DNA of 64,000 bases from Candidatus Poribacteria bacterium (GCA_965222225.1 CBDCTK010000002.1:1600001-1664000); one strand, 5' to 3'. Shown: positions 4,041 to 63,149, counted from the first letter of the stretch. Notes: a model not told the origin generated them from the sequence alone. Translations and numbers: made by a program.

Positions 4041-4078
4041 GGGTATCTCTACCGCACTCGCTATCCGCTCGCTTGCTG
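4041..4078 (-). repeat. Mini-element unit inserted in IS3 orfB C-terminus
   Basis: Reverse complement CAGCAAGCGAGCGGATAGCGAGTGCGGTAGAGATACCC matches the family consensus. Replacing it with 3 nt restores ...YRTP-HEVYFQ*. Confidence 0.8.
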
Positions 4079-4344
4079 GTGTACGGTAGTCGAGCGATTG
4101 ATGGAGTCGCTCTTGGTTATAAAAGTTGAAATAGTCTCTCAATCGACGATGAGTTGTGTTCATTGAGTCATAGTCGTTGAGATAGACCTCCTCGTACTTG
4201 ACGCTGCGCCAAAGCCGCTCAATGAAGATGTTGTCAAAATAGCTGCCTCTGCCGTCCCAACTGATGGCAATGTTATAGGCTTCAAGTCTACCAGTAAACG
4301 CGTCAGAAGTAAATTGACTTCCTTGGTCGTTGTTGAATATCAAC

Positions 4345-4381
4345 GATCAAGTGACCGAATAGCGAGCGCGATAGAGATCCG
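4345..4381 (+). repeat. Mini-element unit inserted in IS3 orfB
   Basis: GATCAAGTGACCGAATAGCGAGCGCGATAGAGATCCG. A net +34 nt explains the frameshift between ORFs 4303..4776 and 4008..4343. Confidence 0.85.
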
Positions 4382-5548
4382 CTTGATTGACTAAGGGCTC
4401 GTTCCAGAGCCGACAGACAAAAGAATACGTCAAGTGAGTTGGAAAGTTCCCATGACAACACGTAACGGGAAAACCAATCCATTACTGCTACCAGATAAAC
4501 GTAACCATTGCTCAAGTGAATATAGGTTATATCAGTTGCCCAGACGTGATTCGGTCTGTTGATACTTAATTCCGTCAGCAGATAAGGGTACATTTTCGAC
4601 GGTTTGCCCATACCGGAGGTCTTGGGCTTGGGATAGATGGCAGCTAATCCCATCTTTCGCATTAATCTTGCTACCCGTTTCGGATTGACGACATATCCTT
4701 GGGAACGAAGCCATTTCGTTAATTTAGGCAGCCCGTAGAACGGTGTCTTGGTGTACTGCTCATCTAACAGACTCATATAGAGCAGGTTTTGTGGCTACTC
4801 TGTTGCAGGACGATAATAGTATGAGGCTCTGGACAAGCCTAAAAGCTCGCATTGTCTCACAACCGACAATGAACGGCACTCCTGTTCAACAAGCTGCCGT
4901 TTGTGTTCAACGGAGGCGTTGAGGTTTTTTTTGAAGCCAGTCCAGTTCTACCTTCAACTGATCAATCTGGCGATAGAGATCTGCCACTAACTCGTCATTG
5001 TCAGAGACCATTTTTGAGCGCCCGTTGGTAAACAGTTGAGGTAATTCCTCAAGAACCTGTTTTTTTCATAGGCTGACTTGCGCTGGATTAACACCGTATT
5101 CACTGGCAATCTGAGCGGTAGTTTGCTGATTCTTAATGGCTTCAAGAGCCACTTGTGCTTTGAATCGGCCATCGTGCTGTTTTCTGTGGGACATGGTGGA
5201 GAAACTCCTTTCTTTTTCTTGGCGTTTCCGAGCCATATTTTCGCCCAGATGATGACCATTTTGCCAGTCGGAATGATCTCTTATTCAACTGTCTAGTTTT
5301 TGGGGGTAATTGCACCTTGCATGCGGAGCAGCGAGTTTGAGTTTAAAACGCCAGCGCATGATGTCCGACAATTAAGCTGCTTCAGCACATTCAAAGGTTC
5401 CTAGCGGAGCAATCCCTTATACGGATTCTTTGCTCCGCGAAGATAATCTTCAATTTGTAATCAAAGATTGCTGTCACAAGCTAGGTTGGTAAGGTCCTTT
5501 ATGGTTTCCGATTGAAATACTCAGCCATTTTTAGTAGGCTTATATTCC

Positions 5549-6040
5549 TTACGATAATCTGTTGCCGGGGTCGGTTGACTCAGATGTGCGCAACGGGAGA
5601 GACTCATCTTCCCGCTCTTCTCTAACAAGGGAGGCCCGATTTGCAAGCGTCAGCAAAAACCATCCAAGTAGTCCCGCACTAGCTCCAGCGATGGCGGCTA
5701 TCCATGCGCCTTTTGCCGTTGTAATTTTATTGAGAGTTTTCTGATCGACCTCGAACGAAATGTCCTTAGGATTGCGCACCGCGAACCGTCTCCGATCACC
5801 TTGTTGGCGGTATTCGATGGTAGGTGCGGTATCGCCGCCAATTTCAATTTTACCTTTCCAGGCTGGTGCATTGACTTTAAGCGCGCTTTCGCCTGATTTG
5901 CCCTTCCAGACAGCTTTAGCTCCCTTGGTACCACTTTCATCCTCAATCTCTTCAACCTGGGTCCGTGCCAGCAAACAATCCGAGATTTTCAGTGCTGCCT
6001 GTTTATAATTTGATAGCGACAACACCCAATTTTCTAACAT
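5549..6040 (-). CDS. Hypothetical protein with one C-proximal transmembrane helix
   Basis: 163-aa ORF with GGAGG RBS and hydrophobic stretch AWIAAIAGASAGLLGWFLLTL. Confidence 0.7.
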   Translation of the reverse strand: MLENWVLSLSNYKQAALKISDCLLARTQVEEIEDESGTKGAKAVWKGKSGESALKVNAPAWKGKIEIGGDTAPTIEYRQQGDRRRFAVRNPKDISFEVDQKTLNKITTAKGAWIAAIAGASAGLLGWFLLTLANRASLVREEREDESLPLRTSESTDPGNRLS

Positions 6041-6173
6041 GATAATCGTTCCTCCACGGTTTGAGGTAAGGTAGTATCTAGCGCCGTTATAACGGCTACT
6101 AGCTTAAGAGTACGTCGGAAACTGTCTAGTCAGTAAAGTCTGTCCACATCTTGGGTTGATTGGAAAGTTTCTG

Positions 6174-6202
6174 TTGACACTTGTACTATCGTGTGCTAGA
6201 CT
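6174..6202 (+). promoter_or_regulatory. Putative sigma70 promoter
   Basis: TTGACA-17 nt-TAGACT with extended -10 TG, about 50 nt upstream of the 6251 ATG. Confidence 0.55.
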
Positions 6203-6250
6203 TGAGACTGCCATCATAGATGTATTGTCTTTGGCGCAAGGAATTGTCCA

Positions 6251-6907
6251 ATGAACATTGATTCAATCGAAGTCCCGTCGGAACAGGAATTGCCGCTTTT
6301 CCCACTGCATGCCGTCCTTTTCCCCGGTGGCATCTTGCCGTTGCACATCTTTGAAGAACGGTATCAGTTGATGATTCAACTGTGCTTGGAGCATGAATCA
6401 CCTTTTGGCGTTGTTCTTATTAAAGAGGGAACAGAAACCGGCGAACCTGCCAAACCACATCTTGTTGGGACAGCCGTGCAGATTCTTGAGGTAAATCGAT
6501 TGGACGGCGGTCGGATGAACCTCATGACATCCGGGCAGTACCGATTTGAGATTCTAGAAAATCAGTACAATCTTCCCTACCTAGTAGGCCGTGTTCGAAT
6601 TCCAAACGTGCTGGATCTAGACGTAAATGATGATTTTGAGCCGATTGCATCGGAAACACGAGAACTATATCGGGATTACGAAGCCTTGTTAAGACAACTG
6701 TTTTTCGAGTGGGAACCTCCGAAGGTAATTCCTGAAAATCCGCGCCATTTGGCATATCAAATTGGTGTTAGGCTGCACATTTCCCTTGAAGAGAAACAGC
6801 AACTGCTGGAAACCTTCCCGCTAAATCAGCTTCTTGCCGGAGAGGCCACGCTCCTAAAAAGAGAAAATCAGCGATTGAGAGCGCGGGTTATCGCTCAAAA
6901 TAATTGA
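6251..6907 (+). CDS. LON peptidase substrate-binding domain protein
   Basis: LPLFPLHAVLFPGGILPLHIFEERY and EKQQLLE motifs. Confidence 0.9.
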   Translation: MNIDSIEVPSEQELPLFPLHAVLFPGGILPLHIFEERYQLMIQLCLEHESPFGVVLIKEGTETGEPAKPHLVGTAVQILEVNRLDGGRMNLMTSGQYRFEILENQYNLPYLVGRVRIPNVLDLDVNDDFEPIASETRELYRDYEALLRQLFFEWEPPKVIPENPRHLAYQIGVRLHISLEEKQQLLETFPLNQLLAGEATLLKRENQRLRARVIAQNN

Positions 6908-7217
6908 AAGATTCAAAGTTGCGCTGGTACGCAGTGTTCAATTAAGATGTTCTCTGTCTGAGTGAATCACGTCTCGAAGGATACACACCAAACGCGACGT
7001 TATTGTTCGTGGCACGAAAGTTGCCGACGATAAGCCACTTATCTGGCTTCATTCGTGTCTTCCTAATATCATCAATCCATTAAATGGCACTTGCGCATCG
7101 GCATTCTAGCGCGTTCGAGAGAATGCCGTGCTGGTTTGACGTTGCAGTTTGCCCTCCCAAATATTACCTGGATAGCGCTTGTCGCGCACCAATCTTTTCT
7201 AGCACAAACTGAGTACC

Positions 7218-7832
7218 ATGCGACTTCATTCATCTCTACATCAGTTAGCGCAAAACACGGGAGTGCAGATTGTTAGGCGAGATTTCGTCTATGTCAGTAA
7301 TTTGCTGTCTTTGACTAGACTTGCTCTAGCACCTTTCATTTTTCTTAACATCGTTCATTATGAGCGGGCTATCGCGTTGACATTAGGCGGTCTAGCCGTG
7401 TTGTCTGATCTGCTTGATGGTCACATGGCTCGGAGGTTGAAGTTGCCCTCTGATTTGGGAAAAATCCTCGATCCTATAGCAGACAAGATCGTGATCGGTG
7501 CCGCGCTTTCCGGACTCGTCTACTCAAAGCATTACGATTTTCCCCTGTGGGTATTTGTGATCGTTGTCATAAGAGATGTTTTTATAGTCGTCGGTAGTAT
7601 CTATCTCGCATATCAAATCCGTTTCGTCACGCGGTCCAATCGATGGGGAAAGTGCGCTACTGTATTCCTTTCAATTGCTTTGATTCTTTACATTCTAGAT
7701 CTTGTCGGAACAATTTCGTTCTATGTACTCTGCGTTGGGATTGCTTTCATCGGTATATCAAGTTGGAGCTACTCCCGGCGGCTAATTAGACTTCTTCAAG
7801 CCGATGTTCCTCAGCAAAGGAAATTGGTGTAA
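7218..7832 (+). CDS. CDP-alcohol phosphatidyltransferase (PgsA-like)
   Basis: NLLSLTR and the DLLDGHMARR...GKILDPIADK signature. Confidence 0.9.
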   Translation: MRLHSSLHQLAQNTGVQIVRRDFVYVSNLLSLTRLALAPFIFLNIVHYERAIALTLGGLAVLSDLLDGHMARRLKLPSDLGKILDPIADKIVIGAALSGLVYSKHYDFPLWVFVIVVIRDVFIVVGSIYLAYQIRFVTRSNRWGKCATVFLSIALILYILDLVGTISFYVLCVGIAFIGISSWSYSRRLIRLLQADVPQQRKLV

Positions 7833-7939
7833 TCCACAAAATTTCGAGTCACCGTTTTGACTTTACCGTAGCGCGAGTCACAGACCGTGATGCACAGGTC
7901 AACCTAGTGATTGATGCATCTGATTCAGGAGAATTGAGC

Positions 7940-8458
7940 ATGCCACAACGGCTAAGTGTACCCGACATCGCTAGCATCATTGGTGTTGAGGAGGATATCA
8001 TAACGAACGCATTGGCCCGCGAAGATGACGATCTCAAACCTTACTTGTATATTGAACCGGTGATAGCATCCCAAGGTGACGAGTCGCTTGAAGCACTATT
8101 TGGCGGAGAGAAAAAGGAGGCAGAAGAACCCCATACTGCGTTCATGCTAAGTATCGATGGGTTATCCATTCTTATCACAAAACTTGCCTTCAATATTCCA
8201 ACGTCAGACCTAATTGAGAACTTAGCTTGCCAAGTGCTGCATCTCGCCGTTTTGCAGGAAGATATCGCCGAATTAAAACGCGAGAATCAGGAGCTTCAAT
8301 TTCAGAATGAAGAACTTCAACGGAGTATCAAAGAGGTCCAGACTGAAACTCTGAAACTAAAATCAGAAGTCGCAGAAGCGGCTAAAACTCAATCACGCGG
8401 ATGGTTTAGTGGTTTGTTCGGAGACGAGAAATCGCGATCGCAATCAAGCAAGGATTAG
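7940..8458 (+). CDS. Hypothetical coiled-coil protein
   Basis: ORF with AGGAG RBS, heptad-rich C-terminal half and a terminal GWFSGLFG amphipathic motif. Confidence 0.7.
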   Translation: MPQRLSVPDIASIIGVEEDIITNALAREDDDLKPYLYIEPVIASQGDESLEALFGGEKKEAEEPHTAFMLSIDGLSILITKLAFNIPTSDLIENLACQVLHLAVLQEDIAELKRENQELQFQNEELQRSIKEVQTETLKLKSEVAEAAKTQSRGWFSGLFGDEKSRSQSSKD

Positions 8459-8473
8459 AGGAGGTGCTGTTGC

Positions 8474-9244
8474 TTATGCGCTCTGCTCCGGATGAATCCT
8501 TTCCAATGCTTCGATAGTTTGAACGCCCTGACGTCCATCAGTTCTAGGCGTTTCTCGGTTGTTAACACAAGCGAGAAAATGCCTGCACTCAACCATCAAC
8601 ATATCTTCCTGATTTTCAGGGGCGAGAAAGTCCCATAGTAGGGAGTGAAGTTGACCGTCGGGTGTTCTTGTTTGGAGCTCGAAAGTCCTTTGATTGACCG
8701 TTGCTTCCGAGGAGGCGTCAAGTTTGAACTGAATCATGGGCACTTTCAGGGCAATTGCCAATGCAACGCAGTGCACCCCCATATCCCAGTAGGCGTTAAG
8801 ATACTTCTCAGGTGTCGTTGTTTTCAGGAATTTTCCGTGTGCGGAAACTGTTTCACCGGGCAACGCGCTAAGTTTGGTAAAACCGGTTGAGTAGCAAAGG
8901 ACATGACCAACCATCAAGACACAATCGGAATCTTCCGCCAACTGCGTGAGGTGGTGTGCTTCCTTTGACGAAAGCGCCATGGGTTTCTCAAGAAACAAAT
9001 CTTTCTTTGCCTGTAACACCCGTTCTCCGACTTCTGCGTGTGTCTCCGAAGGGGTGGCGACGACGACAGCATCACTCTCCTCTATTAACTGATCGATGTC
9101 CTCAGCAAAACGCAAATTAAGCTGTTGAAGTACATCGCGATTCTGATGTCCATAGACGAGGTGGAGTCCACCAAGATGATGGAATTTGTGCAGTAGGGTT
9201 TTACCCCACCGTCCGGTGCCAATCATTGAGATTCTTGGCTTCAT
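8474..9244 (-). CDS. Gfo/Idh/MocA oxidoreductase
   Basis: IGTGRWG, ATPSETH, LEKPM and MVGH motifs. Confidence 0.9.
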   Translation of the reverse strand: MKPRISMIGTGRWGKTLLHKFHHLGGLHLVYGHQNRDVLQQLNLRFAEDIDQLIEESDAVVVATPSETHAEVGERVLQAKKDLFLEKPMALSSKEAHHLTQLAEDSDCVLMVGHVLCYSTGFTKLSALPGETVSAHGKFLKTTTPEKYLNAYWDMGVHCVALAIALKVPMIQFKLDASSEATVNQRTFELQTRTPDGQLHSLLWDFLAPENQEDMLMVECRHFLACVNNRETPRTDGRQGVQTIEALERIHPEQSA

Positions 9245-9458
9245 CAGTCTCCTCCCACGTTCTCTTCAAATCGAATTACTGTGCTGATTATAGCATAGCA
9301 AACAGTGCTTTATCCACTCTTTTGGTCGTTGGTACGACACATCCGCACGGGAGCAACGGCCAAAACTTTATTGAAATATACGCCTTGGCTGTGAACAAAC
9401 CATGCATGGCTGAGAAGCAATTCCATAACACCTAAACCTATACCTAACTTTCGTTGAT

Positions 9459-10043
9459 ATGCCAAAGCGTTCTCGCCACCAGATTATCGCCATTATAACG
9501 TTCGTTTTTGGGCTTGGATTTCTGTATCAGCCCAATTCTGTATTACTCAAGGGTATTGCCTTACCGCTTTTGACCATTACATCGATTTTATCAGCAAGTT
9601 GTTTTTCTGCCAAGTGGGTCGTGGAGATTATTGCAGGTCTTGGGCTAATTACTGGAATGGGGTTCCTGTTTGTGAATGTTCCAGGTGCTCTTCGCGGTTC
9701 CGCTTTCCACCTAATCTATGCTAGCGCAATCGCTTTTAGCATGACAACACGCTGGCGAAAGCAGATGGCAATTCTCGGCGGAACTATCCTAGTCATCGGC
9801 TTTGTTTTCCTCTATCAGCCTCTTAGTTTTCTGCGGAGCACAGCTCTCTATCTTATCCTATTAGGTATGACTTTGTTTGCAATTCTTGCGAGGCGAAAAT
9901 GGTGGGTGGAACGGATTTCCATCAGTACGATTGCATGCGGTCTTATCTTTCTCTGTCAACCGTTTCAGGAGATACTTTACCAGACAGGTTTTCAAATCCT
10001 ACTCGGCGGTTTAACTGGATTTGTTATTGTTGCCCATCGATAG
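9459..10043 (+). CDS. Hypothetical integral membrane protein
   Basis: Multiple hydrophobic helices; recurring FLYQP/FLCQP motif suggests internal repetition. Confidence 0.75.
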   Translation: MPKRSRHQIIAIITFVFGLGFLYQPNSVLLKGIALPLLTITSILSASCFSAKWVVEIIAGLGLITGMGFLFVNVPGALRGSAFHLIYASAIAFSMTTRWRKQMAILGGTILVIGFVFLYQPLSFLRSTALYLILLGMTLFAILARRKWWVERISISTIACGLIFLCQPFQEILYQTGFQILLGGLTGFVIVAHR

Positions 10044-10059
10044 AGAAAGTCTCTATGTT

Positions 10060-11223
10060 CTAAATTTCCTCAATTTGCTTTTGCCTTAACCAGATACTCG
10101 TTTCCACTACGCTACAAACGCCAATCACCACGGCACAAAGAATGTACGGACTGTTAACTCCTAGTCCTGAATCCGCCAATACCCCACCGAAAAATGGTCC
10201 AAGCAATAAGCCACTTCCCAGAACAGCTTCGTGGCCACCACTCTTGTTGCCCTTATCCGGCTGTGCATGCAAACTATAATACATGCTGCTGAAGTAAGTA
10301 ACAGCTCCAGATAGACCAATTACCGCGAAGGCACACGTCCAATAAAATCCATGTGGCATAAGTCCGATTGCCAAGAAGGCGATTATTGCGAGTAACTGGG
10401 CGCCAATCAACGGGGACAATCGATAATGCCACCGTGCGGCTTGATTTGTGCCTAACCATAGGAAGCCAATCAGTTGTGTTGCTCCCAACACCAGTATTAA
10501 ATTTCCATAAGCTATTGCGGGAATGCCGGCCTCGACTGTCAGTTTCGGCGCGATATGTCGAACGATTCCGAGCGAAAACCATGAAGCAAAGTTAGCAATC
10601 CGCGCTATTTTTAGATGGATGTGGTGTGCAGTATGAGGAGGCGCTTCAATTAAAACAGGGTGTTCCGGCGAACGTAGGTCTTTACGATTTGCGATTATTT
10701 GAGATTCAAGAGTAATCCAATTGATTAGACTAAATCCGCCCGCGAAATAGAAAGCAAGGACTGGGCTGGTTCCTTGATAAAGATAACTGGAAATCATCGG
10801 ACCAATTGTAATCCCAACGGTCCAGAACAGATTAAAGGTCGTAATGCGTCCAATCAAATCTCCTGCACCTTCTCGTTCAGCTAGCCACGCTTCATAGGTG
10901 GGCCAAAAAAGTGCCATACCGATACCACTGCACGGAAAAACTATCATGAGATATAGCTTGCGCGTACAGAATGGGAGCAGAATACTTACGGCGGCGAGTG
11001 TAAGGCAGGCAATGGTGAGGACGCGAAGTCGTCCAACCCTATCTGAAAGACGGCCAAACGGAATTGCTAGTAGCACGAAGACGCCCGTGCTGATTGCGGT
11101 CAGAATGCCTAGAAACGTAGAAGAAAAGTGGAGGTAGTTTATGAAAAAAGCGGCGTTCGTAAGGATACTACTGATGCTAGCATCCATTAGAAGCGCAGGG
11201 AGATATGCACCGTACTTGCGCAT
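10060..11223 (-). CDS. MFS transporter
   Basis: GRLSDRVGR motif A and about 12 TM segments. Confidence 0.9.
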   Translation of the reverse strand: MRKYGAYLPALLMDASISSILTNAAFFINYLHFSSTFLGILTAISTGVFVLLAIPFGRLSDRVGRLRVLTIACLTLAAVSILLPFCTRKLYLMIVFPCSGIGMALFWPTYEAWLAEREGAGDLIGRITTFNLFWTVGITIGPMISSYLYQGTSPVLAFYFAGGFSLINWITLESQIIANRKDLRSPEHPVLIEAPPHTAHHIHLKIARIANFASWFSLGIVRHIAPKLTVEAGIPAIAYGNLILVLGATQLIGFLWLGTNQAARWHYRLSPLIGAQLLAIIAFLAIGLMPHGFYWTCAFAVIGLSGAVTYFSSMYYSLHAQPDKGNKSGGHEAVLGSGLLLGPFFGGVLADSGLGVNSPYILCAVVIGVCSVVETSIWLRQKQIEEI

Positions 11224-11526
11224 GAATGTTTGTTATCTTCGCATGAGATAGGTCCGGCCGCCAATCACACCCCATCTGGGGATTCCCATTAGCTCGATTC
11301 TGTGCTTTTAAGACGAATAACAGGCGGTGAAAATCGAACGTTAAAGATTAGCAGGTGAGATTTTGATTATCCAGTTTTCTTGATTGACCATTGAAGAAGT
11401 TGCCGAACGTTTATGACCGGTTGGAGAGAGTTGGAATAGGCTTTGCAATATGTCAAGAAATCGCTAGTCATTAAGCGGGTATGCTTCCCTATAGGCCAGT
11501 AATGTACAAAGTCAAGCCTAGTCACT

Positions 11527-17161: not shown

Positions 17162-17175
17162 GTCGGATTCTCCTG

Positions 17176-54685: not shown

Positions 54686-54842
54686 GATTAAAGGAGCGAA
54701 CGGATCAAGCGAGATCAAATGAGCGAATAGCGATCAACTGAGTGGATAGCGAAAGAGCAACTGACCGATAGGGAAGGCGGTAGAGATCCCATAGCAAATC
54801 CCATAGTGAGGGCGATAGTAAATCCCGTCCGATAGAGATCCC
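54686..54842 (+). repeat. Nested cluster of mini-element units
   Basis: Left ends at 54703, 54713, 54732 and 54755 (degenerate one at 54686); right ends ..ATCCC at 54790, 54802, 54826 and 54842. Confidence 0.85.
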
Positions 54843-55864: not shown

Positions 55865-55885
55865 ACCTCCGTATGCATTTACGTA

Positions 55886-58315
55886 TTATCCACTCTCGCG
55901 GAAGGTGTTCTGCCAAGCCTCTTTCAGTTGGTGAATCTGCGTCTCCACAACTGTTTCCCCGCCGATGCCCTTGATGACGAAATCCGATTGTTCGATAATC
56001 CTTCCAATACAACGACACGGCACGCCCTCCATGCGTTCTTCGAATGCGGCGCGATTCTCACGCGGGACTTCGACGATGAATCGGCTGTTAGATTCAGCAA
56101 AAAGGAGAACATCATCAGTTGTAACCTTTGAATCACGCGGCACGCTCGTCAGATCGAGTTCCATCCCGAATCCTCCGGAGAACGCCATTTCCGCGGCGGC
56201 AACACCGATGCCCCCTTCGGAGCAATCGTGGCAGGAGTTAATCAACCGCTCCTCAGCCGTGCGACTCAACGCCGTCATCGTGTGCTTCCCTTCATCTGGT
56301 CGAACAATCGGAACACTGTTCCCGACGAATCCGTGTATATCGTAATAGTGCGAGCCCCCGAGTTCGCGATAGGTTTTCCCGAGGACATAAATCAGGCTCC
56401 CCGGTGATTTGGCGTCCATCGTGATTGCCCTCGTCACATCAGGAATAACACAGCAAGCCGAGATTAACAGCGTTGACGGAATAGCGAGTTGTTTGCCTGT
56501 GGTGGTATCGCGGTATTCGTTGTAGAGACTGTCCTTTCCAGAAATGAAAGGGGTCCCGTAGGCGGTCGCGATGTCGTAGCAGGCCTTTGCCGCACGCACA
56601 AGCCCGCCGAGGCGGTCAGGTTTGTCGGGGTTCCCCCAACTAAAGTTATCAAGCAGTGCCGTATATTCAAGCTTCCCACCGACAGCAATGATATTGCGAA
56701 GCGCTTCATCAATTGCGGCAGCCGCGCTGTGATATGGGTCTATCTCGCTGTATTTGGGATTGATCCCGTTCGAGACGATAATCCCCTTACGTGAGCCGAG
56801 GACAGGTGTAACGATACAGGCATCGCTTGGCCCGTCGTTCTCTACGCCAACAAGCGGTTTGAGGACAACCCCTCCCTGTACCTCGTGATCGTACTGTCGG
56901 ATGACCCATTCCTTGCTTGCAATATTGGGGCTCCCAAGAATTGTGCAGAGATCTCGTGTAAAATCTGCAACCTTGCTGGCACCTGACACTCTATTTTCAC
57001 CGGTGACGACCGTCGCATCGGGCGGCTCTGGAAAACATGGCATCTCCCAGACTGCCTTCTTGGTAGGTGTTGGCAGCCCTTCATGCAAGAAGTGCATATC
57101 CAACTCTGCGGCAAGTTTCCCGTCATAGGACACACGCAACTTTTGGCTATCCGTAAACTCTCCAAGCACTGTGGCTTCAACCAATTCAGCTTCGCACAAC
57201 TCCATCATTGCTGCAACGTTCTCCGGGGGCAGTGCCAACACCATCCGTTCTTGTGCCTCCGAAAGCCAGATTTCCCACGGAGCGAGTCCTTCGTATTTCA
57301 ACCGCACGTTTTCTAGGTGAACCTCTGCTCCGGTGTCTTTTCCCATCTCGCCGACAGCTGATGAGAATCCGCCAGCGCCGCAGTCGGTAATCGATCGATA
57401 AAGTCCCCGGTCGCGCGCCTCCATCAAAACGTCGACAATCTTCTTCTCCATAATCGGGTTACCAATCTGTACAACACTGCCTAGGCTCTCGGAGGCGTCA
57501 TCCAGTTCCAGAGAGGAGAACGTTGCCCCATGGATGCCATCACGCCCTGTGCGGCCTCCGACCGCGAGAATCAGATCGCCGGGATGTACGGATTTCTCGC
57601 ACCGATCTCTTGGAATCAATCCGACATTGCCGCAGAAGACCAGTGGATTGCCTGTAAACCGTGAGTCGAACAGAATTGCGCCGTTCGCAGTAGGGATGCC
57701 CATGCGATTGCCGTAATCCCGTACTCCGGCGACAACACCTTTGAAGACACGCCTAGGGTGGAGGCATCCTGTGGGAAGTTGGTTATAAGCTAAATCCAAC
57801 GGACCGAAGCAAAACACGTCGGTGTTCAGAATCGGTTTTGCGCCGAGGCCCGTGCCAAGAGAATCCCGAATGACGCCTCCGATTCCTGTACCGGCGCCGC
57901 CATAAGGCTCGATTGCGGAGGGATGATTGTGGGTTTCGACCTTGAACGTAATGTTATAATCATCGTCAAATTCTATGATTCCCGCATTGTCAACAAAGAC
58001 TGAAACACACCAGTCCTTGTTGATTTCCTCTGTTGCGCGGCGAATGAATGAATTGAACAGTCCGTCAATGATTTCAACTGTCCCGCCGTTCTCCGTGTAC
58101 TCAATTCGACTTTTGAAGGTTTTGTGAACGCAGTGCTCCGACCAAGTTTGCGCGATTGTCTCTATTTCAACGTCCGTTGGTTCTCGACCTTGTCGGGCGA
58201 AATAACTCTGAATCGCTTTCATTTCGGGGTGGTTGAGCGACAACAGGCCTTCGCGACTAATTCGAATCAATTCCGCCTCGTCGACTTTTCGAATGGGAAT
58301 GTGCTTAACGTCCAT
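55886..58315 (-). CDS. purL: FGAM synthase subunit PurL
   Basis: WSEHCVHK, KVETHNHPS, GRDGIHGA and SEAQERM motifs. Confidence 0.97.
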   Translation of the reverse strand: MDVKHIPIRKVDEAELIRISREGLLSLNHPEMKAIQSYFARQGREPTDVEIETIAQTWSEHCVHKTFKSRIEYTENGGTVEIIDGLFNSFIRRATEEINKDWCVSVFVDNAGIIEFDDDYNITFKVETHNHPSAIEPYGGAGTGIGGVIRDSLGTGLGAKPILNTDVFCFGPLDLAYNQLPTGCLHPRRVFKGVVAGVRDYGNRMGIPTANGAILFDSRFTGNPLVFCGNVGLIPRDRCEKSVHPGDLILAVGGRTGRDGIHGATFSSLELDDASESLGSVVQIGNPIMEKKIVDVLMEARDRGLYRSITDCGAGGFSSAVGEMGKDTGAEVHLENVRLKYEGLAPWEIWLSEAQERMVLALPPENVAAMMELCEAELVEATVLGEFTDSQKLRVSYDGKLAAELDMHFLHEGLPTPTKKAVWEMPCFPEPPDATVVTGENRVSGASKVADFTRDLCTILGSPNIASKEWVIRQYDHEVQGGVVLKPLVGVENDGPSDACIVTPVLGSRKGIIVSNGINPKYSEIDPYHSAAAAIDEALRNIIAVGGKLEYTALLDNFSWGNPDKPDRLGGLVRAAKACYDIATAYGTPFISGKDSLYNEYRDTTTGKQLAIPSTLLISACCVIPDVTRAITMDAKSPGSLIYVLGKTYRELGGSHYYDIHGFVGNSVPIVRPDEGKHTMTALSRTAEERLINSCHDCSEGGIGVAAAEMAFSGGFGMELDLTSVPRDSKVTTDDVLLFAESNSRFIVEVPRENRAAFEERMEGVPCRCIGRIIEQSDFVIKGIGGETVVETQIHQLKEAWQNTFRESG

Positions 58316-58519
58316 ACAGTTCCTTTAGCGGAGACACACAGGAAACAGGGGTAACGGGTTGGCTGGATCGAAACATAAAGGCGCAAAAACACCACACAGT
58401 GTTATAGCAGCATGACACTCCTCATGAAACGGAGTCTCTAGTGACAGCATCAGGTTACACCTGACGCATTTGTAAGACTAAAATCTGCCAACTACCGATT
58501 GTCATTGACATACGCGTTT

Positions 58520-58548
58520 AGTATAACAGATAACCTATTCCAGATCAA
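58520..58548 (-). promoter_or_regulatory. Putative purLQ promoter
   Basis: Minus strand TTGATC-17 nt-TATACT with extended -10 TG. Confidence 0.5.
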
Positions 58549-58621
58549 TCCAAAGTCTGCCGGGCAACGGCCCATCACTTCGCCATATTTTTGGCAATCT
58601 TGCTTGTCTGCAATCTCTACC

Positions 58622-58648
58622 AACAATGTCCAATTTTTGGACATTGTT
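58622..58648. repeat. Perfect 12-bp inverted repeat
   Basis: AACAATGTCCAA-TTT-TTGGACATTGTT. Confidence 0.8.
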
Positions 58649-58653
58649 TACAT

Positions 58654-58699
58654 AAAAAAAGCACCATGCAAAGTCGCAGGAGCGTCTTCAACATGGTGC
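58654..58699 (-). terminator. Probable intrinsic terminator of the 58761..58997 ORF
   Basis: GCACCATG...CATGGTGC stem followed by T7 on the minus strand. Confidence 0.6.
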
Positions 58700-58760
58700 C
58701 TGTTCTGAATTTCCGGTTAGATGTTCTTGTTTTTCTTGATTGTTCTTGTTTTTCTTGGTC

Positions 58761-58997
58761 TCAAACAGTTGCGTTCGGCGCCGTTTCCAGCCGCGCAATG
58801 GCACGGTGGACCTCGGCCTTAGGATCTAACGATTGACCATTGCTCAATTGTACTTTCAGATTCGACAGAGCAGCTTTCGCAGCCTCCAGGCGGAAAAGAG
58901 CATTCTCGCGCCGACATCCCTTGAGCGTGTTAGTGACAATTCTCCGGCGATCCGAGGAAATTCTTGAAACCAATTCCTGATATTTTTGAAGTCTCAT
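58761..58997 (-). CDS. Small basic hypothetical protein (78 aa)
   Basis: AAGGAGGA RBS and downstream terminator; family not recognised. Confidence 0.6.
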   Translation of the reverse strand: MRLQKYQELVSRISSDRRRIVTNTLKGCRRENALFRLEAAKAALSNLKVQLSNGQSLDPKAEVHRAIARLETAPNATV

Positions 58998-59138
58998 GGT
59001 TGATTTCCTCCTTATTGTACTCAAGTTGTTGAATAGTATTGCATGAATTATGCCAATCTTTCTTGTCACATTTTAGAGCCAGTTTGATTACTAGGTAGCA
59101 AAGCGGATCATGGAAGAATGCAAGAACGGAAGTGCATG

Positions 59139-59225
59139 GAGAAACCGAACGGATAGTGAGAGATCGAGCGACTGTAAAAGGAGAGCGATAATGTCCCATA
59201 GAAATTCCCGTGCGATAGAGACCCA
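59139..59225 (+). repeat. Degenerate nested cluster of mini-element units
   Basis: Inner unit 59162-59197 sits inside host halves 59139-59161 and 59198-59209; an extra right half lies at 59210-59225. Confidence 0.7.
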
Positions 59226-59497
59226 CTCCGAATCTCGCCCACCCGTTGCTGCGTAAGTCCCATTGAAACAAAAACCGTTTCTAATAAAATAGTAAGCCCG
59301 GAAATTATGCAAACCCATTTGCGCGTCATGATAGTATTTCGTTCAATCGTTAAATATTTGAATTGAGCCGAACCACGGGAAAATCCCGACCGAGTATGGG
59401 GTAAGGCAAGAATCTTCGCCTTCCATCGGTTAGACAAATGACGAGAAGAAAAGTTCGCACTGCCCAATAGGGAAATAACCAAGGACTTCGTTTAATA

Positions 59498-60490
59498 ACC
59501 AATGGTGCTAGTTTGAAATTTGGAGGTTAATAAGCATAACATTCCCTTTTGGCTTTGCTTTAACGCGAAAGGTATCAGGGCATGAGACGATTTCCTCGAT
59601 TCTACCGTTAATTTGAGTATCGGTAGCTATCAAATAACGGGAGGAAATCTAGACTCATGACCATAGTAGATTTTATCACAGAACTGTTTTGTTGTGTTGA
59701 TGATAAACTCTCACAGCACGGTAAAAACCATAAGCATAGCCAAGCCAAACTTTATCCGTCTGAAGTGGTTACCATTGCCATGCTCTTTGCGCTCAAGGGT
59801 GTGGGTAATCGAGCCTCCTATCGCTGGATAGCGAACAATTTCAAATCCTTATTTCCGATGTTACCCGAGCGTACCCGATTGTTCCGCTTATTCGACGGGC
59901 ATCAACATCTCATTGACGTTTTTATGGCGAATCCTTCGCTTATCGGTGGAATTGACACGTACGGTATTGAATTGATTCACCCGCGCCGAGAAGGGCGCTC
60001 TAAACGTCAAATCGGACGCAAAGGCATTTCCAACCAACGATGGATTGTAGGTGGAAAACTTTGCTTGCTACACAATCATCTCGGACTGATTGTCAACTGG
60101 GACTGCGACACTGCCAATGTACATGATGGGAGTGCCTTCCAACATCTCGTTGATGGGGTCAGTGACCAGATGGTTGTTTTGCCGATGTAAATTTCGCCAA
60201 AGCGGATTGGTTCCCTTCCAACTTGCGTCTGTGCCGACGTGGCGAGTGGAATTCTCGGATGCTGCGAGTGGAATTCTCGGATGCTGGTAGAAACGATTTT
60301 GTCCATGTTGACGCTAGTGTGCCATTTTAAGAAAGTCATGCACCGTCGTTGGAGTTACTTCAAAACGCGAGTCGGCTTTACAATGGCTTTGGTCAATCTC
60401 TTGGTACAGTGGAATGGATTGTCGATTGACGACGATGGCTTTGTGCCTCTGTCAATAGCTCAATTCAGTCTCTAAACTAGCACCAAAGGT
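59498..60490 (+). mobile_element. IS982-like insertion sequence
   Basis: IR ACCAATGGTGCTAGTTT versus reverse complement ACCTTTGGTGCTAGTTT, 5-bp direct repeat TAATA, 993 bp long. Confidence 0.8.
59657..60475 (+). pseudogene. IS982-like DDE transposase pseudogene
   Basis: LFCCVDD, KLYPSEVVT, IDT, ANVHD and VET motifs; -1 frameshift near 60180 and a 22-bp tandem duplication at 60242-60285. Confidence 0.8.
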
Positions 60491-61047
60491 TAATATGATT
60501 ACTCTAGAGCTTGATTGGAAATCCATCTTTTGTAGCATCATTCGCCTCAAGACCAAGTTTTTCTTCGGCACTCGACAAGATGGCGCAGGAATTCTATCTT
60601 TATTTGATTATTGAAGATCCCTACTCATTTGCAATCAGGGGAAACTAACATGCCTCATGTTTCTCTCAGTATTACATGATTACATGTTGCATAGAGTCAA
60701 GCCAAGAGGGGAAACCCACGAGTTGATGAACACCGATTGGTTTGATGATTGTCGATTGTGTGCGATAAACGTCGAGTTTCACTCGAATTACGTTACTCTT
60801 GACGGAATGAAACCTCGAAAGCTCTCCTTCCGCGTGAGACTTCTCAGAGATTTCCGTCAACCCAACCTACGTACTCACGTTTTCTCGTTTTCGCATTGTG
60901 TGCGCGTCCGGTCCACAGCGCGGTAGAGGATGACTCTACAACCATAAATTAGACGCGGTTGCCCTGCTCTATATCCCTTTTTCGGTGGTGCAATGCGGTG
61001 TTTCGTGTTACACTAATTTTTTATCATATCTTAGGAGAATATGCACA

Positions 61048-61869
61048 ATGGCTTATGAACTTGAGGACGAATTTGGTGACATTATCGGTAAAGCGCGTCG
61101 TGGAAATGGATTGAGCCTGAGCCACGTCGCTAACCAAGCAGGTGTAACAGATGCCCAACTCTCCCAATTGGAGGATTATACGCTTAAACCAACTGAAGGC
61201 CAGGTCCACAAGATCGCGGAGGTACTTGGTCTTGATGGGGCTAAGCTGGCTGACATTGCCATGGAACACTGGGCGCCGGCTCCCCCGGAACTTGATGAAA
61301 AGCTGGATGTTGAGCGAATCTCCGGGGACGTCGGCGGATACCCGGTGAACGCGTACCTGTTAATTTGCAAAACAACCAAGCAAGCGGCTGTTATTGACAC
61401 CGCTGCCCACCCGAATCTTATCCTTAAACGGATAAAGGAGATTGACGTTAAACCGACTGTCATTCTACTGACGCATGCGCATAGCGATCACTCTGATGGT
61501 TTGCCAGAACTGGAAAAGGCGACAAATTGCCCGACATATATTCATGCGAACGAGCCCACGCCTCGCAGCTCTCAACAGTTCCGCACACTCCATCACGGCG
61601 ATGAAGTGTCGGTCGGCGAACTTACGGTAAAGACGCTTGATACGCCGGGACACACGCCGGGCGGGTGTAGCTTCTACGCAGGTACAATTGCGGCAGTGGG
61701 CGATGCGATTTTTGCGGGGTCGGTCGGCGGACCAAAAATCTCCTATGAAGACGAGATTACGAGTGTTCGGAATCACCTGCTCTCGCTTCCGGATGAGGTG
61801 AGACTTTTCCCCGGACACGGTCCATCGACCACAGTTGGTGAAGAGAAGGCGCACAACCCCTTCTTTTGA
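61048..61869 (+). CDS. XRE-type HTH plus MBL-fold metallo-hydrolase fusion
   Basis: KARRGNGLSLSHVA...LSQLE HTH, then THAHSDH, PGHTPG and PGHG motifs. Confidence 0.9.
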   Translation: MAYELEDEFGDIIGKARRGNGLSLSHVANQAGVTDAQLSQLEDYTLKPTEGQVHKIAEVLGLDGAKLADIAMEHWAPAPPELDEKLDVERISGDVGGYPVNAYLLICKTTKQAAVIDTAAHPNLILKRIKEIDVKPTVILLTHAHSDHSDGLPELEKATNCPTYIHANEPTPRSSQQFRTLHHGDEVSVGELTVKTLDTPGHTPGGCSFYAGTIAAVGDAIFAGSVGGPKISYEDEITSVRNHLLSLPDEVRLFPGHGPSTTVGEEKAHNPFF

Positions 61870-61887
61870 ATGCCGACATCGCGACGC

Positions 61888-62117
61888 GTCGGCAATTGGA
61901 GTTCCCCCTCACGGTAGGAGCGATCTCCGAATCGCGACTTGTCGCAAATTGGAATTTCCTCCTACGGTAGGTGCGATCAAGCGAACGATCAACTGAGTGG
62001 ATAGCGAAGGCGATAGCAAATCCCATAGTGACGGGATCGAGCGACTGAATAACGACCGCGATAGAGATCTCAAGGCGATGGAGATCCCATAGAGAATCCA
62101 TTTCTAACCGCACCTAC
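61888..62117. repeat. Cluster of GTAG-type REP-like sequences, the last interrupted by mini-elements
   Basis: Alternating copies at 61888-61912 (-), 61914-61938 (+) and 61941-61965 (-), plus GTAGGTGC[...]AACCGCACCTAC at 61967-62117. Confidence 0.75.
61975..62100 (+). repeat. Nested cluster of mini-element units
   Basis: Complete units at 61987-62024 and 62035-62071 within an outer unit; extra right half at 62072-62088. Confidence 0.85.
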
Positions 62118-62181
62118 ACCCAACACTTACCATATTCTCTTAGAAAATGAACCACTAAATTATCAATTGAAAGGCAGAATT

Positions 62182-63048
62182 ATGAGCGTAAATAGAGCAA
62201 TCGAACTGCTTCAAGAGGGACAACCAATCTATTATACAGGACTGAACTCACTGAGTTACGAAGCTGGCGTCAAAGCCTCACAAACATGGGCAGATTACCT
62301 CATGGTTGAGATGGAACACGGGCTTTACAATGTGCCCGGGCTTCATCAGTTTATGCACGGTCTCGTAGAAGGCGGCCCCACGCGGAGCGGTCATCGCACG
62401 CCGACAGTGATTACGACGCTGCCGGCGGAAGGCACGAATGAAAGCGTGATGCGCGCAAATGCTTGGATGGTTAAACAGGTGCTCGCCTGCGGCGTACACG
62501 GCGTCCTGCTCTGCCATGCCGAAGACCCCGGGGCGGTCAGAGCATTTGTCGAGGCAGCTCGCTATCCGTTCCAGTCTGTTGGTGTGGGAAATGGACTGGA
62601 ACAAGGGCGACGCGGCAACGGCGGACAGGGAAACGCCGCCGCCATTTGGGGAGTGTCGGGGCAGGAATATCTGACCAAAGCCGATGTCTGGCCGCTCAAC
62701 CCGGAAGGTGAACTTATGCTCGGACTAAAGATTGAAAATAGACGTGCACTTGAAAATTCGGAAGCCAGTGCGAGTATTCCCGGCATAGCCTTCGCAGAAT
62801 GGGGCCCCGGGGACATGGGATTTTCGTTCGGTCTGCCTGACGCTCATGACCCGCCTTACACGGAGGAGATGGCGGGAGCGCAGGCGCGAGTGAAAAACGC
62901 TTGTGAATCGGTAAACGTTGCGTTTCTTGACGGGGCTAACCCGGAGAATGTCGCCCGGAGGATTGACGAGGGAGTCAAGATATTGTCCGCCGGTGAGGAA
63001 GCGGCAGAAGTTGGGCGAAAGCACACGAATCGAACGATGCCGTGGTAA
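62182..63048 (+). CDS. HpcH/HpaI aldolase / citrate lyase family protein
   Basis: EMEHG, VKQVLACG, ARYP, KIE and WGPGDMG motifs. Confidence 0.88.
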   Translation: MSVNRAIELLQEGQPIYYTGLNSLSYEAGVKASQTWADYLMVEMEHGLYNVPGLHQFMHGLVEGGPTRSGHRTPTVITTLPAEGTNESVMRANAWMVKQVLACGVHGVLLCHAEDPGAVRAFVEAARYPFQSVGVGNGLEQGRRGNGGQGNAAAIWGVSGQEYLTKADVWPLNPEGELMLGLKIENRRALENSEASASIPGIAFAEWGPGDMGFSFGLPDAHDPPYTEEMAGAQARVKNACESVNVAFLDGANPENVARRIDEGVKILSAGEEAAEVGRKHTNRTMPW

Positions 63049-63078
63049 ATCCTCCGGTTATGATTTCTCGGTAGGAGC

Positions 63079-63149
63079 GATCAAGCGAGCGAATAGATCA
63101 AGTGACCGAACAGGGAACGCGATAGAGATCCCAGTGCGATAGAGATCTC
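63079..63149 (+). repeat. Two nested mini-element units inside a REP-like hairpin
   Basis: Inner unit at 63096-63132; outer halves at 63079-63095 and 63133-63149; flanks GTAGGAGC and CTTGCCCCGCC. Confidence 0.85.

Follow-up and report, generated by a model that had tools for sequence, protein, structure and literature searches.

A 37-base folded DNA repeat of sponge-symbiont Poribacteria that inserts into REP hairpins and into its own copies

Described short repeats and the Poribacteria unit

The closest analogue of the element analysed here is found among the small dispersed repeats (SDR1-8) of Nostocaceae cyanobacteria, as an earlier note on this DNA had proposed. They were reportedly described (Elhai et al. 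2008, Genome Res 18:1484) as dispersed repeats of 21-27 nt that nest within their own family and land in short repeats of other kinds, hairpins backed by compensatory changes being reported for some families. Compared by description only, SDRs and the Poribacteria unit are both ultra-small, far below MITE size, and devoid of coding capacity; both nest in their own family and both have compensated hairpins (in some families, for SDRs). The analogy stands on nesting and on the hairpin and fails on length, the unit being 37-38 nt long with a 30-nt core. It also comes from a different phylum, and its fold is built on tandem G·A mismatches. For SDRs, we know of no report that 1-5 target bases, the first of them a G, are lost, nor of a strand bias following GC skew.

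MITEs have terminal inverted repeats and produce a target-site duplication; the unit does not belong with them, as its two ends are not complementary to each other and its empty sites show loss, not duplication. In integron attC sites, as in the units, the structure is conserved and the sequence free; one specific DNA strand folds, and unpaired bases serve as recognition marks; in chromosomal integrons the folding attC strand lies on the leading-strand template. Unlike the units, attC sites are recombination sites on gene cassettes and not self-propagating dispersed repeats. The earlier statement that the units are not CRISPR repeats was borne out by a k-mer spacing scan, which found no array: they form 38-nt tandem runs without spacers, and their variable part is a paired stem. 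IS200/IS605 elements and their miniature derivatives share with the units the lack of terminal inverted repeats and of target duplication, as well as a hairpin read on one strand and an orientation tied to replication. They differ in having two subterminal hairpins instead of one and a fixed 5′ tetra- or pentanucleotide, and in that the units lose target bases.

REP and REPIN-RAYT systems are described in PMC3116915, PMC3733652, PMC6006769 and PMC2817692. REPs are, as the units are, imperfect palindromes of 20-40 nt that occur between genes in many copies and are mobilised in trans, with folded single-stranded DNA as the presumed substrate of both; the terminal tag of REPs is GTAG or CGTC (PMC3733652). 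With more than 100 copies (869), mostly intergenic, the units resemble REPs in size and copy number. Neither tag was found in the conserved unit, whose conserved ends are GATCAA and GCGATAG. Further differences from REPs are the lack of a cognate RAYT, whether flanking or co-occurring, the systematic nesting, the use of REP hairpins as targets and the replacement of target bases. The units are mostly singlets; REPINs replicate as inverted doublets, and tail-to-tail doublets of the unit occur in one genus. REP hairpins are also preferred landing sites of IS1397 and other REP/BIME-targeting insertion sequences (cited in PMC3116915), which are kilobase-sized, autonomous and equipped with transposase genes, in contrast to the 37-nt invader of Poribacteria. 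Among HIP1-rich cyanobacteria, PMC5861425 reports no SDR-like repeat outside the Nostocaceae.

Copy number, anatomy and fold of the unit

A sponge-symbiont Candidatus Poribacteria MAG of 5.7 Mb carries about a thousand copies of this 37-base structured DNA element. We started from one stretch of it, 64,000 nucleotides long (the window), in which the seven uninterrupted units claimed in the earlier note were all found at the positions given there; a profile built from them returned seven full units and one partial head. The 14-nt tail motif, allowing 3 mismatches or fewer, was seen 15 times in the window for 5.2 expected (0 of 100 shuffles reached 15), and the 21-nt head 4 times for 0 expected. 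Features of the window are collected in Table 1. Scanning the whole genome and related ones, as that note proposed, gave 869 uninterrupted units here (skeleton regex) and placed the family in two genera. Genome-wide, nhmmer reported 1234 matches at E≤1, 939 of them near full length, and the exact 14-mer of the tail motif occurred 146 times. Copies are full length, and the numbers of heads and tails are in balance (1103 vs 1080). Only 60 of 867 chromosomal units lay inside crude ORFs, coding DNA making up 79%. No Rfam family was matched by the unit, and viral contigs gave 0 matches.

Table 1. Units, nests and host structures in the window (positions counted from its first nucleotide).
Feature	Position	Strand	Context
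Diverged full unit	4041..4079	-	3′ end of IS3-family transposase reading frame
Full unit	4345..4381	+	Interrupts IS3-family transposase between ...ALSQS and LIFNNDQGSQFTS
Nest	54703..54842	+	Stacked heads 54703, 54713, 54732; inner unit 54755-54790; stacked tails to 54842
Nest	59141..59225	+	Degenerate host head, inner unit 59162-59198, two host tails
5′ arm (GGTAGGTGC) of GTAG-type REP hairpin	61966..61974	+	Hosts 61975..62099 nest
Nest in REP loop	61975..62099	+	Outer head 61975-61986; units 61987-62024, 62035-62071; partial tails to 62099
Loop remainder and 3′ arm (TTTCTAACCGCACCTAC) of REP hairpin hosting 61975..62099 nest	62101..62117	+	
Host unit with guest	63079..63149	+	Head 63079-63095, guest 63096-63132, tail 63133-63149

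The core reads G-ATC-AA-NN-GA-NN-GRATA-NN-GA-NN-GC-GAT-AG and is followed by a 3′ tail of 7-8 nt which differs between genera. The GATC-like ends announced for the unit were recovered at the 5′ side, where base frequencies are G.92, A.99, T.99 and C.96; they did not hold at the 3′ side, where AGATCCC, present in 125 of 869 units, is one variant among many, and the second genus has no 3′ GATC. As 37 nt leave no room for a gene, the unit is indeed non-autonomous.

The units had been described as not being hairpins, and this proved wrong. The unit is a structured hairpin rather than an unstructured purine-rich stretch: an irregular stem in which two covarying 2-bp helices are parted by an invariant tandem G·A mismatch. 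The four stem pairs are Watson-Crick or G:T in 829, 821, 839 and 843 of the 869 units, with 3-4 pair types each. Covariation was measured on 145 distinct units, taken from 12 further genome records besides the window: 95.0% of their cells are paired, compared to 61.8±1.4% in shuffles (0 of 500 reached 95.0%). Double changes amounted to 257, for 50.6±7.9 in shuffles, and slid controls paired in just 24-59%. At the two helix ends, G:T or T:G was counted 204 and 115 times among the 869 units, and A:C or C:A only 5 and 13 times. This excess of G:T over A:C identifies the purine-rich strand as the one that folds. For 4 of 5 units, minimum free energy folding of this strand with RNA parameters reproduced the helices that covary, and predicted in addition an invariant helix A2T3C4:G26A27T28. 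The one complementary strand folded with RNA parameters did not give the hairpin of the purine strand, DNA parameters did not recover the hairpin, and fold energies under either parameter set were no better than those of shuffles.

Every genome of two genera carries the family (10 of 10 in one genus, 4 of 4 in the other), making 14 of 176 Poribacteria genomes, and it is essentially absent from the other 162; the reversed-pattern control of this species-genome scan gave 0. In the two unit-bearing genera, which belong to two families, a genome holds anywhere from hundreds of copies up to about 1,500, and 20 genomes of a neighbouring genus are almost without units.

Insertion sites, nesting and orientation

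That units insert without target duplication, replacing a few bases, was claimed in the earlier note and is confirmed by the empty paralogues. A clean single-gap empty paralogue exists for 189 of the 869 units, and the host segment replaced measured 1 or 3 nt in 63 cases each, 2 nt in 42, 4 nt in 19 and 5 nt in 2; because a fixed 37-nt unit was used for scoring, 38-nt tail variants lower some of these values by one. The first base of the replaced segment is nearly always G (at least 134 of the 189 cases). At its 5′ end the unit is joined to the host exactly, with G1 as the first base in 92% of units, and the 3′ junction is variable. At solo sites, the base just before the unit was C or G in 92% of 182 cases, with G at 60% one position further upstream and nothing more: no conserved tetra- or pentanucleotide was present in the 5′ flanks, and microhomology between the flanks did not go beyond one G. 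Stems of at least 4 bp closing the insertion site were modestly enriched (18% vs 11% at solo sites).

Units land preferentially in REP hairpins and in other units, and now and then in genes. One gene hit in this way is the IS3 gene at 4345, which reads through again only when the host is taken to have lost 2 mod 3 nt; no intact paralogue was found across this junction. The diverged unit nearby was matched by nhmmer at 4042-4077(-), with E 1.2e-06. At 63.1k, the guest replaces GCG of the host unit, for which 11 paralogous empty hosts exist (e.g. C2:2303921), and the empty paralogous host of the 59.1k nest lies at C2:2869957-2869999.

Empty alleles were also found in orthologous loci, where the earlier note had advised to look for them. 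A REP site is empty in G023 and G024 and filled in G000, G022 and G026: at the place of 61966-62117, G023 and G024 keep an intact hairpin with GG where the nest sits. The 63.1k host unit, free of insertions in G027 and G020, contains a guest in G000, and occupancy of orthologous sites differs strongly among sister species. Identical 30-nt cores also recur in many unrelated contexts: one, for example, has 16 copies in 15-16 contexts, and another has 14 copies, whose left flanks all differ and whose right flanks are of 12 kinds. Mobility is shown by these paralogous and orthologous empty sites together with the identical cores in different contexts, which supports the proposal of a very small non-autonomous element moved in trans.

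Self-nesting was likewise confirmed: remnants of a host unit flank 401 of the 869 units, in the same orientation for 362, opposite for 33, and both for 6. Almost all of the 33 opposite nestings are at CTATC|GC, which is also the commonest site of same-orientation nesting. A GTAG lies 14 nt or less upstream of 198 of the 869 units, and belongs to host REPs. Only 33 of 151 multi-unit clusters of G000 are of mixed orientation; in one record of the second genus, REPIN-like tail-to-tail doublets are separated by a 19-nt spacer.

Among 623 single-orientation clusters, the purine strand was on the negative-skew strand in 425 and on the other in 198 (Fisher p=1.5e-19). Units between co-directional genes were with the genes 289 times and against them 261 times. 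The skew bias was the same in unit-free REP families (OR 0.13-0.40), and it was also present for solo units without a nearby GTAG (OR 0.34, p=3e-4). Unit orientation is shown to track local GC skew rather than transcription, and the ordinary GTAG-type REPs of the genome behave in exactly the same way. The folded strand is the C-rich strand, which we take to be the leading-strand template. In IS608, the active strand is on the lagging-strand template according to PMC6006769, i.e. on the opposite replicative strand to the one that folds in the Poribacteria units.

Candidate enzymes and explanations

The earlier note had placed the mobilising enzyme outside the window, and no enzyme gene was found close to the units; genes between them are ordinary and diverse. 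It had also advised to look for a co-occurring HUH/RAYT, recombinase or reverse transcriptase gene; none of the HUH Y1/RAYT subtypes searched tracks the units. Unit-bearing genomes do hold several bona fide GTAG-REP families, which share the strand bias of the units, together with RAYT or IS200-type genes: an IS200/IS605 transposase in G000 (65.8 bits, cut-off 55) and a RAYT in the second genus (201.6 bits, cut-off 80). IS200-type Y1 genes are present in 110 of the 176 Poribacteria genomes, most of them without units, and were not found (E≤1e-5) in the unit-bearing single-contig genomes G032 and G034. A 247-aa Y1 occurs in 5 of 176 genomes, and among the other Y1 subtypes searched in the second genus none is in all four genomes. 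No Y1/RAYT subtype searched has a distribution that coincides with that of the units. The repeats flanking the Y1 genes are REP families of their own, not the unit as such, and units occupy the loops of these flanking REPs.

Our leading, still tentative reading is a non-autonomous single-strand DNA mini-element of the REP/SDR kind, moved in trans, most likely by an HUH Y1 enzyme. The unit would be recognised as folded single-stranded DNA, then cut and joined at replication by a structure-specific nuclease or transferase, the best candidate being a Y1 (IS200-type TnpA or RAYT) carried with its own REP families in the same genomes. With an enzyme borrowed from these families, the unit would behave as a parasite of the REP system. 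An enzyme that reads the shape and the invariant unpaired bases would leave the stem pairs free to vary, and propagation of fold-keeping copies only would explain the 87 fully paired stem types counted. Against this reading stand the lack of a Y1 subtype that tracks the family, the flanking of Y1 genes by REPs of their own, a folded strand opposite to that of IS608, the missing 5′ tetra- or pentanucleotide and REP tags, the fold energies no better than those of shuffles, the failure of DNA parameters to recover the hairpin, and the modest enrichment of stems closing the insertion site. Y1 transposition is also not known to end in the loss of a few target bases.

Rather unlikely, in our view, is a dedicated enzyme other than a Y1, such as a structure-specific nuclease/ligase, a recombinase common to both genera, or a hijacked host replication or repair activity. 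The absence of co-occurring Y1 subtypes would fit it, as would the target-base loss and variable 3′ junction, which to our knowledge match no textbook transposase chemistry; the patchy distribution over two genera of two families, with a nearly empty neighbour, suggests something specifically transferred or retained. However, no candidate gene was found, genes between the units are ordinary and diverse, and no viral contig carries the unit.

It is unlikely that no dedicated enzyme is involved. Template switching during replication, or capture of single-stranded pieces that form hairpins, where forks stall or at Okazaki junctions, would yield imprecise 3′ junctions and small target losses, and both were seen; the folded strand is on the presumed nascent lagging strand, heads have slipped in the 54.7k nest of another sample (a contig of X5, where 10 nt missing at 54711 merge two heads into one), and one orthologous nest has 1 head and 4 tails. 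Nevertheless, the exact 5′ junction, the full-length copies and the near lack of microhomology argue against it, and specific recognition is indicated both by the covariation and by the strict conservation of the bases left unpaired.

Two further possibilities are improbable. In the first, the purine-rich strand would be transcribed, folded as RNA, reverse-transcribed and integrated. RNA parameters predict the covarying fold, G:U pairs and tandem G·A mismatches are typical RNA motifs, and nests are covered by metatranscriptome contigs, possibly through DNA carry-over. Orientation is nevertheless nearly independent of gene direction, no Rfam family matches, and a precise 5′ end is the reverse of what target-primed reverse transcription gives. 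The genome has a single weak RVT_1 match (27.5 bits alone, 29.9 with in-frame neighbours, cut-off 29.6), in a 670-aa protein, perhaps of defence type. The second, marginally less probable still, is a host motif (protein-binding, fork or topology signal) held in place by selection. A structure kept while sequence is free, an almost exclusively intergenic location and an orientation following replication-related asymmetry would suit it. Yet units insert into and destroy each other, REPs and an IS3 gene, orthologous units decay without compensation (e.g. G:T vs G:G at the 63.1k host unit), sister species differ in occupancy, and most of the phylum lacks units. Lastly, although short-read contigs end inside nests, an assembly, adapter or amplification artefact is refuted by 13 independent public records from different assemblers and read types, by the 14 species genomes with their null control, by a short-read contig of run X1 that spans 58898-59522 over the 59.1k nest with 0 differences, and by covariation and orthologous conservation, which adapters cannot yield.

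A bolder reading, which we hold possible though doubtful, is that the units make up a separate class of mobile DNA: 30-nt folded single-strand "hairpin parasites" with no terminal repeats, target duplication or cognate flanking transposase, which colonise REP hairpins and their own copies through replication-coupled integration. If so, integration would excise a few target bases after an unpaired G, by a chemistry and an enzyme yet undescribed, the SDRs of cyanobacteria would represent the class a second time, independently, and the units of Poribacteria would be the parasite of a parasite.

Copy number and distribution of the units

The seven units that the earlier note had picked out are all present where it had placed them, and a profile built from them returned seven full units and one partial head (the 5′ part of a split unit) in the window. 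There, allowing up to 3 mismatches, the 14-nt tail occurred 15 times against 5.2 expected, a number reached by none of 100 shuffles, and the 21-nt head 4 times against 0 expected. Directional replacement, read from such a surplus of tails over heads, was rejected because genome-wide no such surplus exists: heads numbered 1103 (reversed control 13) and 3′ arms with tail 1080 (control 52). The genome amounts to 5.70 Mb in two contigs, the window lying on the larger one, C2, at positions 1,600,001-1,664,000. It contains 146 occurrences of the exact 14-mer and 1234 profile matches at E≤1, 939 of them near full length, while a skeleton pattern leaving the variable positions unconstrained recovered 869 uninterrupted units.

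Scanning one genome per prokaryotic species gave at least 101 stretches in 13 records, and among the matches listed all were from Candidatus Poribacteria. The phylum was then surveyed over 176 genomes with the exact 30-position pattern, whose reversed control gave 0 in every genome. Counts were 281-768 per genome in 10 of 10 genomes of the window's genus (496 in the genome holding the window), 108-128 in 4 of 4 genomes of one genus belonging to another family (the second genus hereafter), at most 13 in another five, and 0 in the remaining 157. When up to 3 mismatches were allowed, the same genomes yielded 776-1548, 245-280, and for the rest 21, 7 and at most 4 (control at most 2). The split is sharp, with 14 genomes carrying units and 162, many closed genomes being included, with none or few. 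In the four low-count MAGs examined, which are fragmented, matches were confined to a few short contigs (see the table), and these are most simply mis-binned, originating from co-occurring species of the unit-rich genus; low-copy genomes as seed states were rejected on this ground. A phage vector was rejected as well, as the pattern had 0 matches among viral contigs.

No Rfam family reached its gathering score over the 64 kb, and a permissive scan of one nest (units inserted in units) gave only two snoRNA matches, with E values of 1.3 and 6, at chance level. CRISPR was rejected, in line with the earlier note: a k-mer spacing scan found no arrays, its two regular runs being a long array on C2, with a 22-nt unit (CTTAACCACTCTGCACTGC-like) in tandem, and a repeat within coding sequence that, by its look, we take to be leucine-rich.

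Sequence anatomy and fold

Per-position composition gave the consensus G-A-T-C-A-A-x1x2-G-A-x3x4-G-R-A-T-A-x5x6-G-A-x7x8-G-C-G-A-T-A-G, followed by a looser tail, which is AGATCCC in 125 of the 869 units and otherwise exists in many variants, some one base longer. The same note had held that the units are not hairpins, which proved wrong: x1 pairs with x8, x2 with x7, x3 with x6 and x4 with x5 (Watson-Crick or G:T in 829, 821, 839 and 843 of 869 units, respectively), with 3-4 pair types each, and the pairs covary. Covariation was measured on 145 distinct units, taken from the window and other species and selected by a pattern leaving the stem columns free. Paired cells amounted to 95.0%, compared to 61.8+-1.4 in shuffles (0 of 500 reached 95.0%), and double-sided changes to 257 cells, compared to 50.6+-7.9; sliding the partner by 1-3 columns dropped pairing to 24-59%. 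The same behaviour was found in 233 units from loci of other species.

The two 2-bp helices flank an invariant GA opposite GA, where a duplex palindrome would have TC. At the helix ends, G:T was found 204 and 115 times, and its complement-strand equivalent, A:C, 5 and 13 times. This means that selection acts on the fold of the purine-rich strand, in single-stranded form; the unit carries a folded single-strand signal. The G:T class does not reflect decay, because the other cytosines of the unit remain 96-99% C. With RNA parameters, folding of the purine strand returned exactly the covarying helices in 4 of 5 units, and added an invariant helix, A2T3C4:G26A27T28; the purine-strand fold was not obtained from the single complementary strand that was folded. 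DNA parameters did not recover the hairpin, and fold-energy z-scores were non-significant with both parameter sets. As folding energies give no support, the case for structure rests on covariation.

The 869 units comprise 740 different 37-mers, 466 cores and 193 stem types; outer helices are of eight types and inner ones of six, in nearly free combination. Fully paired units number 743, in 87 types. The units are mobile in trans, and identical cores were found in unrelated surroundings: one occurs as 16 copies in 15-16 contexts, and another has 14 copies, among which 14 left and 12 right flanks were distinguished. The commonest core, present in 45 copies, is in part carried along by a larger repeat, 16 copies sharing one left context.

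In the second genus the core is unchanged and the tail is T-rich (TCTTCTC, TTTTCAA and similar), so that the conserved element is the 30-nt core. A cassette cut and ligated at GATC was rejected, since nested targets are not GATC and the 3′ GATC belongs to one tail variant only, missing in the second genus. The minority tail TCTTGTAG, which is also the 5′ flank of the GTAGGTTGGGT family of REPs (ordinary GTAG-type hairpin repeats), forms head-to-tail unit runs with a 38-nt period, the paired stem differing from copy to copy. One locus of the second genus contains tail-to-tail inverted doublets whose 19-nt spacer occurs in both orientations, a REPIN-like arrangement.

Insertion sites and their history

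To look for empty sites, the two flanks of each unit were joined and searched against the genome. Junction-spanning matches were obtained for 268 units, 189 of which gave a clean, single-gap empty paralogue. Duplication was never seen between empty and filled paralogues. Host bases were replaced, 1 in 63 cases, 2 in 42, 3 in 63, 4 in 19 and 5 in 2, lengths scored with a fixed 37-nt unit, so that 38-nt tails make some of them one too low. The commonest replaced strings were G, GC, GCA, GCG, A, C, GGC, GA and GCAT; a leading G was present in at least 134 of the 189. The 5′ junction is exact, before G1 of the unit, and the 3′ junction is loose. Within host units, those interrupted by another, the left junction fell after position 23 (119), 19 (45), 12 (39), 17 (29), 18 (19) or 10 (14), the host sequence resuming at position 27, 21 or 14; the junction is mostly the first unpaired G past a helix. 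Nearly all of 33 opposite-orientation nestings examined were at CTATC|GC, the very spot of the commonest same-orientation nesting, again with a replaced string starting with G. At 182 solo (non-nested) sites the preceding base was C or G in 92%, and the next one out was G in 60%. A few target bases are lost, after C/G|G.

Units prefer REPs and their own copies. Their targets include at least four hairpin-repeat families, namely GTAG-tagged REPs and an untagged hairpin flanking the IS200-type gene; on the unit's own strand, the 14 nt upstream contained GTAG for 198 units and CTAC for 19. Stems of at least 4 bp closing the site were modestly enriched at solo sites (18% versus 11%), and those of at least 5 bp near GTAG reached 16% versus 5%. 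With so weak an enrichment, hairpin-loop targeting was rejected as a general rule, and is a preference. Crude ORFs, which cover 79% of the DNA, contain 60 of 867 chromosomal units. One coding sequence hit in the window is an IS3-family transposase (rve-like motifs, DQGSQFTS etc.), split by a unit at 4345 and ending, on the 3′ side, in another unit that has diverged; its frame requires a lost segment of 2 mod 3, and no intact copy was found elsewhere in the genome.

Orthologous loci were compared in nine other species of the genus around one gene, presumably an aldolase. Upstream, a REP hairpin is intact (…GGTAGGTGC-GG-TTTCCAACCGCACCTAC) in two species (G023, G024), and the same point is filled with nests in the window's genome, G022 and G026; their insides differ, one of the units in G026 being inverted. 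On the downstream side, G027 and G020 have an uninterrupted host unit, and an extra guest is present in it in the window's genome only. A tree built from the two flanking genes places filled states on three separate branches with empty ones nested among them, which means that either one hot spot was hit repeatedly or loss occurred. A rare outer tail common to the window's genome and G022 favours an old origin for part of the nest. Decay of nests by slippage was also seen. A contig from another sample lacks 10 nt at 54711, fusing two heads, and the G022 nest upstream of the same gene (L121) consists of a complete unit and, behind it, three tails without heads (1 head, 4 tails), which fits a deletion between direct head repeats. 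Short-read contigs of public runs, which break inside nests, showed no clean empty allele in the parts covered. In the same data, one window segment had about 10 times its neighbours' contig depth in four of four runs, and the contig from the other sample joins 59491 straight to 60490; the segment looks like a multi-copy insertion sequence missing at this site in another strain.

Location of features (window positions count from the window's start; C2, larger contig of the window's genome, G000)
Feature	Location	Remark
IS3-family transposase gene	window 4008-4776 (-)	interrupted
Segment of raised depth	window 59468-60683	
Gene of the orthologue comparison	window 62183-63050	
38-nt-period run	C2:1578328-1578606	tail TCTTGTAG
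38-nt-period run	C2:1538286-1538420	tail TCTTGTAG
38-nt-period run	C2:1550867-1550905	tail TCTTGTAG
22-nt tandem array	C2:1547440-1547810	
Y1 HUH locus	C2:3080258-3080728	IS200-type
Y1 HUH locus	C2:3088874-3089344	RAYT-like, one stop
Y1 HUH locus	C2:1545636-1545947	RAYT remnant
Y1 HUH locus	C2:3727664-3727972	weak RAYT-like
Y1 HUH locus	C2:2563965-2564705	weak RAYT-like
670-aa protein with RVT_1 match	C2:4499560-4501572 (-)	
Inverted doublets, second genus	OZ240245.1, 656001-664000	locus L048
Matches in low-count MAG G041	C72, C83, C91, C116	
Matches in low-count MAG G124	C353	
Matches in low-count MAG G146	C61, C362	
Matches in low-count MAG G018	C30, C38, C42, C43	

Strand bias, candidate enzymes and significance

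Between co-directional genes, 289 units lie with the gene direction and 261 against it. GC skew was taken locally, in 100 kb windows. Among 623 single-orientation clusters, 425 had the purine strand on the negative-skew strand, compared to 198 with it on the positive-skew one (Fisher p=1.5e-19), the fraction changing monotonically over skew bins from 0.80 to 0.31. The skew profile is a patchwork that mostly agrees with gene-strand excess, and it represents the historical identity of the strands. Along the 5.6 Mb of C2 its sign switches at least 8 times, not two, and unit density there is very uneven (8-68 per 250 kb, short last bin excluded), which suggests many inversions or a mosaic assembly. 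The units' strand bias is REP-like: unit-free ordinary REP families gave odds ratios of 0.13, 0.15, 0.40 and 0.21, and solo units without nearby GTAG 0.34 (p=3e-4). Being common to both, it points to a replication-linked single-strand process shared by units and REPs. Alternatively, there may be purging of copies whose folding strand is on the lagging-strand template. The folded strand's side is opposite to that predicted by the IS608 rule, as given in PMC6006769.

Five Y1 (HUH-type enzyme domain) matches were found in the window's genome. Its IS200/IS605 transposase scores 65.8 bits (cut-off 55), and the gene has its own hairpin repeat on either side, in inverted copies, one of them struck by a unit. 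Two proteins are weakly RAYT-like, one with its own GTAG-REP, and the two further matches are fragments. The second genus has a bona fide RAYT (201.6 bits, cut-off 80), whose GTAG-REPs hold units in their loops. At least three such genes thus have hairpin families of their own, which means that several hairpin-repeat systems exist side by side in one genome. No enzyme emerged by co-occurrence, as none of three Y1 queries tracked the units: 110 of 176 genomes have the IS200-type gene, which was not found at E≤1e-5 in two closed unit-bearing genomes, a 247-aa Y1 protein is in 5 of 176, and no other Y1 subtype common to all four second-genus genomes was found. Adjacency was likewise rejected, the 197 short intervals between unit clusters holding ordinary, diverse ORFs.

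Our leading reading, held tentatively and at slightly less than even confidence, is that the unit would be recognised as folded single-stranded DNA, then cut and joined in trans during replication, most plausibly by one of the resident HUH Y1 enzymes; the unit would then be a parasite of the REP system. Movement by a dedicated enzyme, of a type other than those queried here, is a possible though clearly less probable competitor. The sharp 14 versus 162 presence/absence makes the enzyme behind the units, of whichever type, findable by phyletic profiling. Enzyme-free spread, through template switching or fragment capture, seems to us unlikely. An RNA intermediate is improbable; RVT_1 gave one weak match only in the window's genome, in a 670-aa protein that we guess to be a defence-type RT. 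We give a similarly low place to a motif selected by the host: orthologous units show uncompensated substitutions between species, and the structure is therefore maintained by propagation rather than locus by locus. An artefact is hardly worth considering.

The unit family works like SDRs and REP/REPINs, the closest described systems, and fits the definition of neither. Compared to cyanobacterial SDRs, whose features are used here as reportedly described by Elhai in 2008, the units are longer and reside in another phylum. To our knowledge, these SDRs (2008) are the only described parallel, still without a mechanism. The units lack the GTAG/CGTC tag and cognate RAYT of REP/REPINs, the terminal repeats and duplication of MITEs, and the fixed target of IS200/IS605 derivatives. 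The comparison with SDRs also draws on PMC5861425. The main texts covered, a part of the literature, gave no account of elements of this kind in Poribacteria or of REPs invaded by mini-elements. That the units form a separate class, hairpin mini-elements whose integration chemistry is not yet described, is conceivable but rather doubtful.

Elements this small lie under the size range where transposition is understood. The unit family offers a much better handle than SDRs, with a defined 30-nt fold, 87 natural compensatory variants, hundreds of exact empty/filled site pairs, a target rule that can be measured and the strand bias that REPs have too. It also shows that a smaller element can settle in REP hairpins, which are selfish or domesticated elements in their own right, and the units account for a large share of intergenic variability among these sponge-symbiont species.
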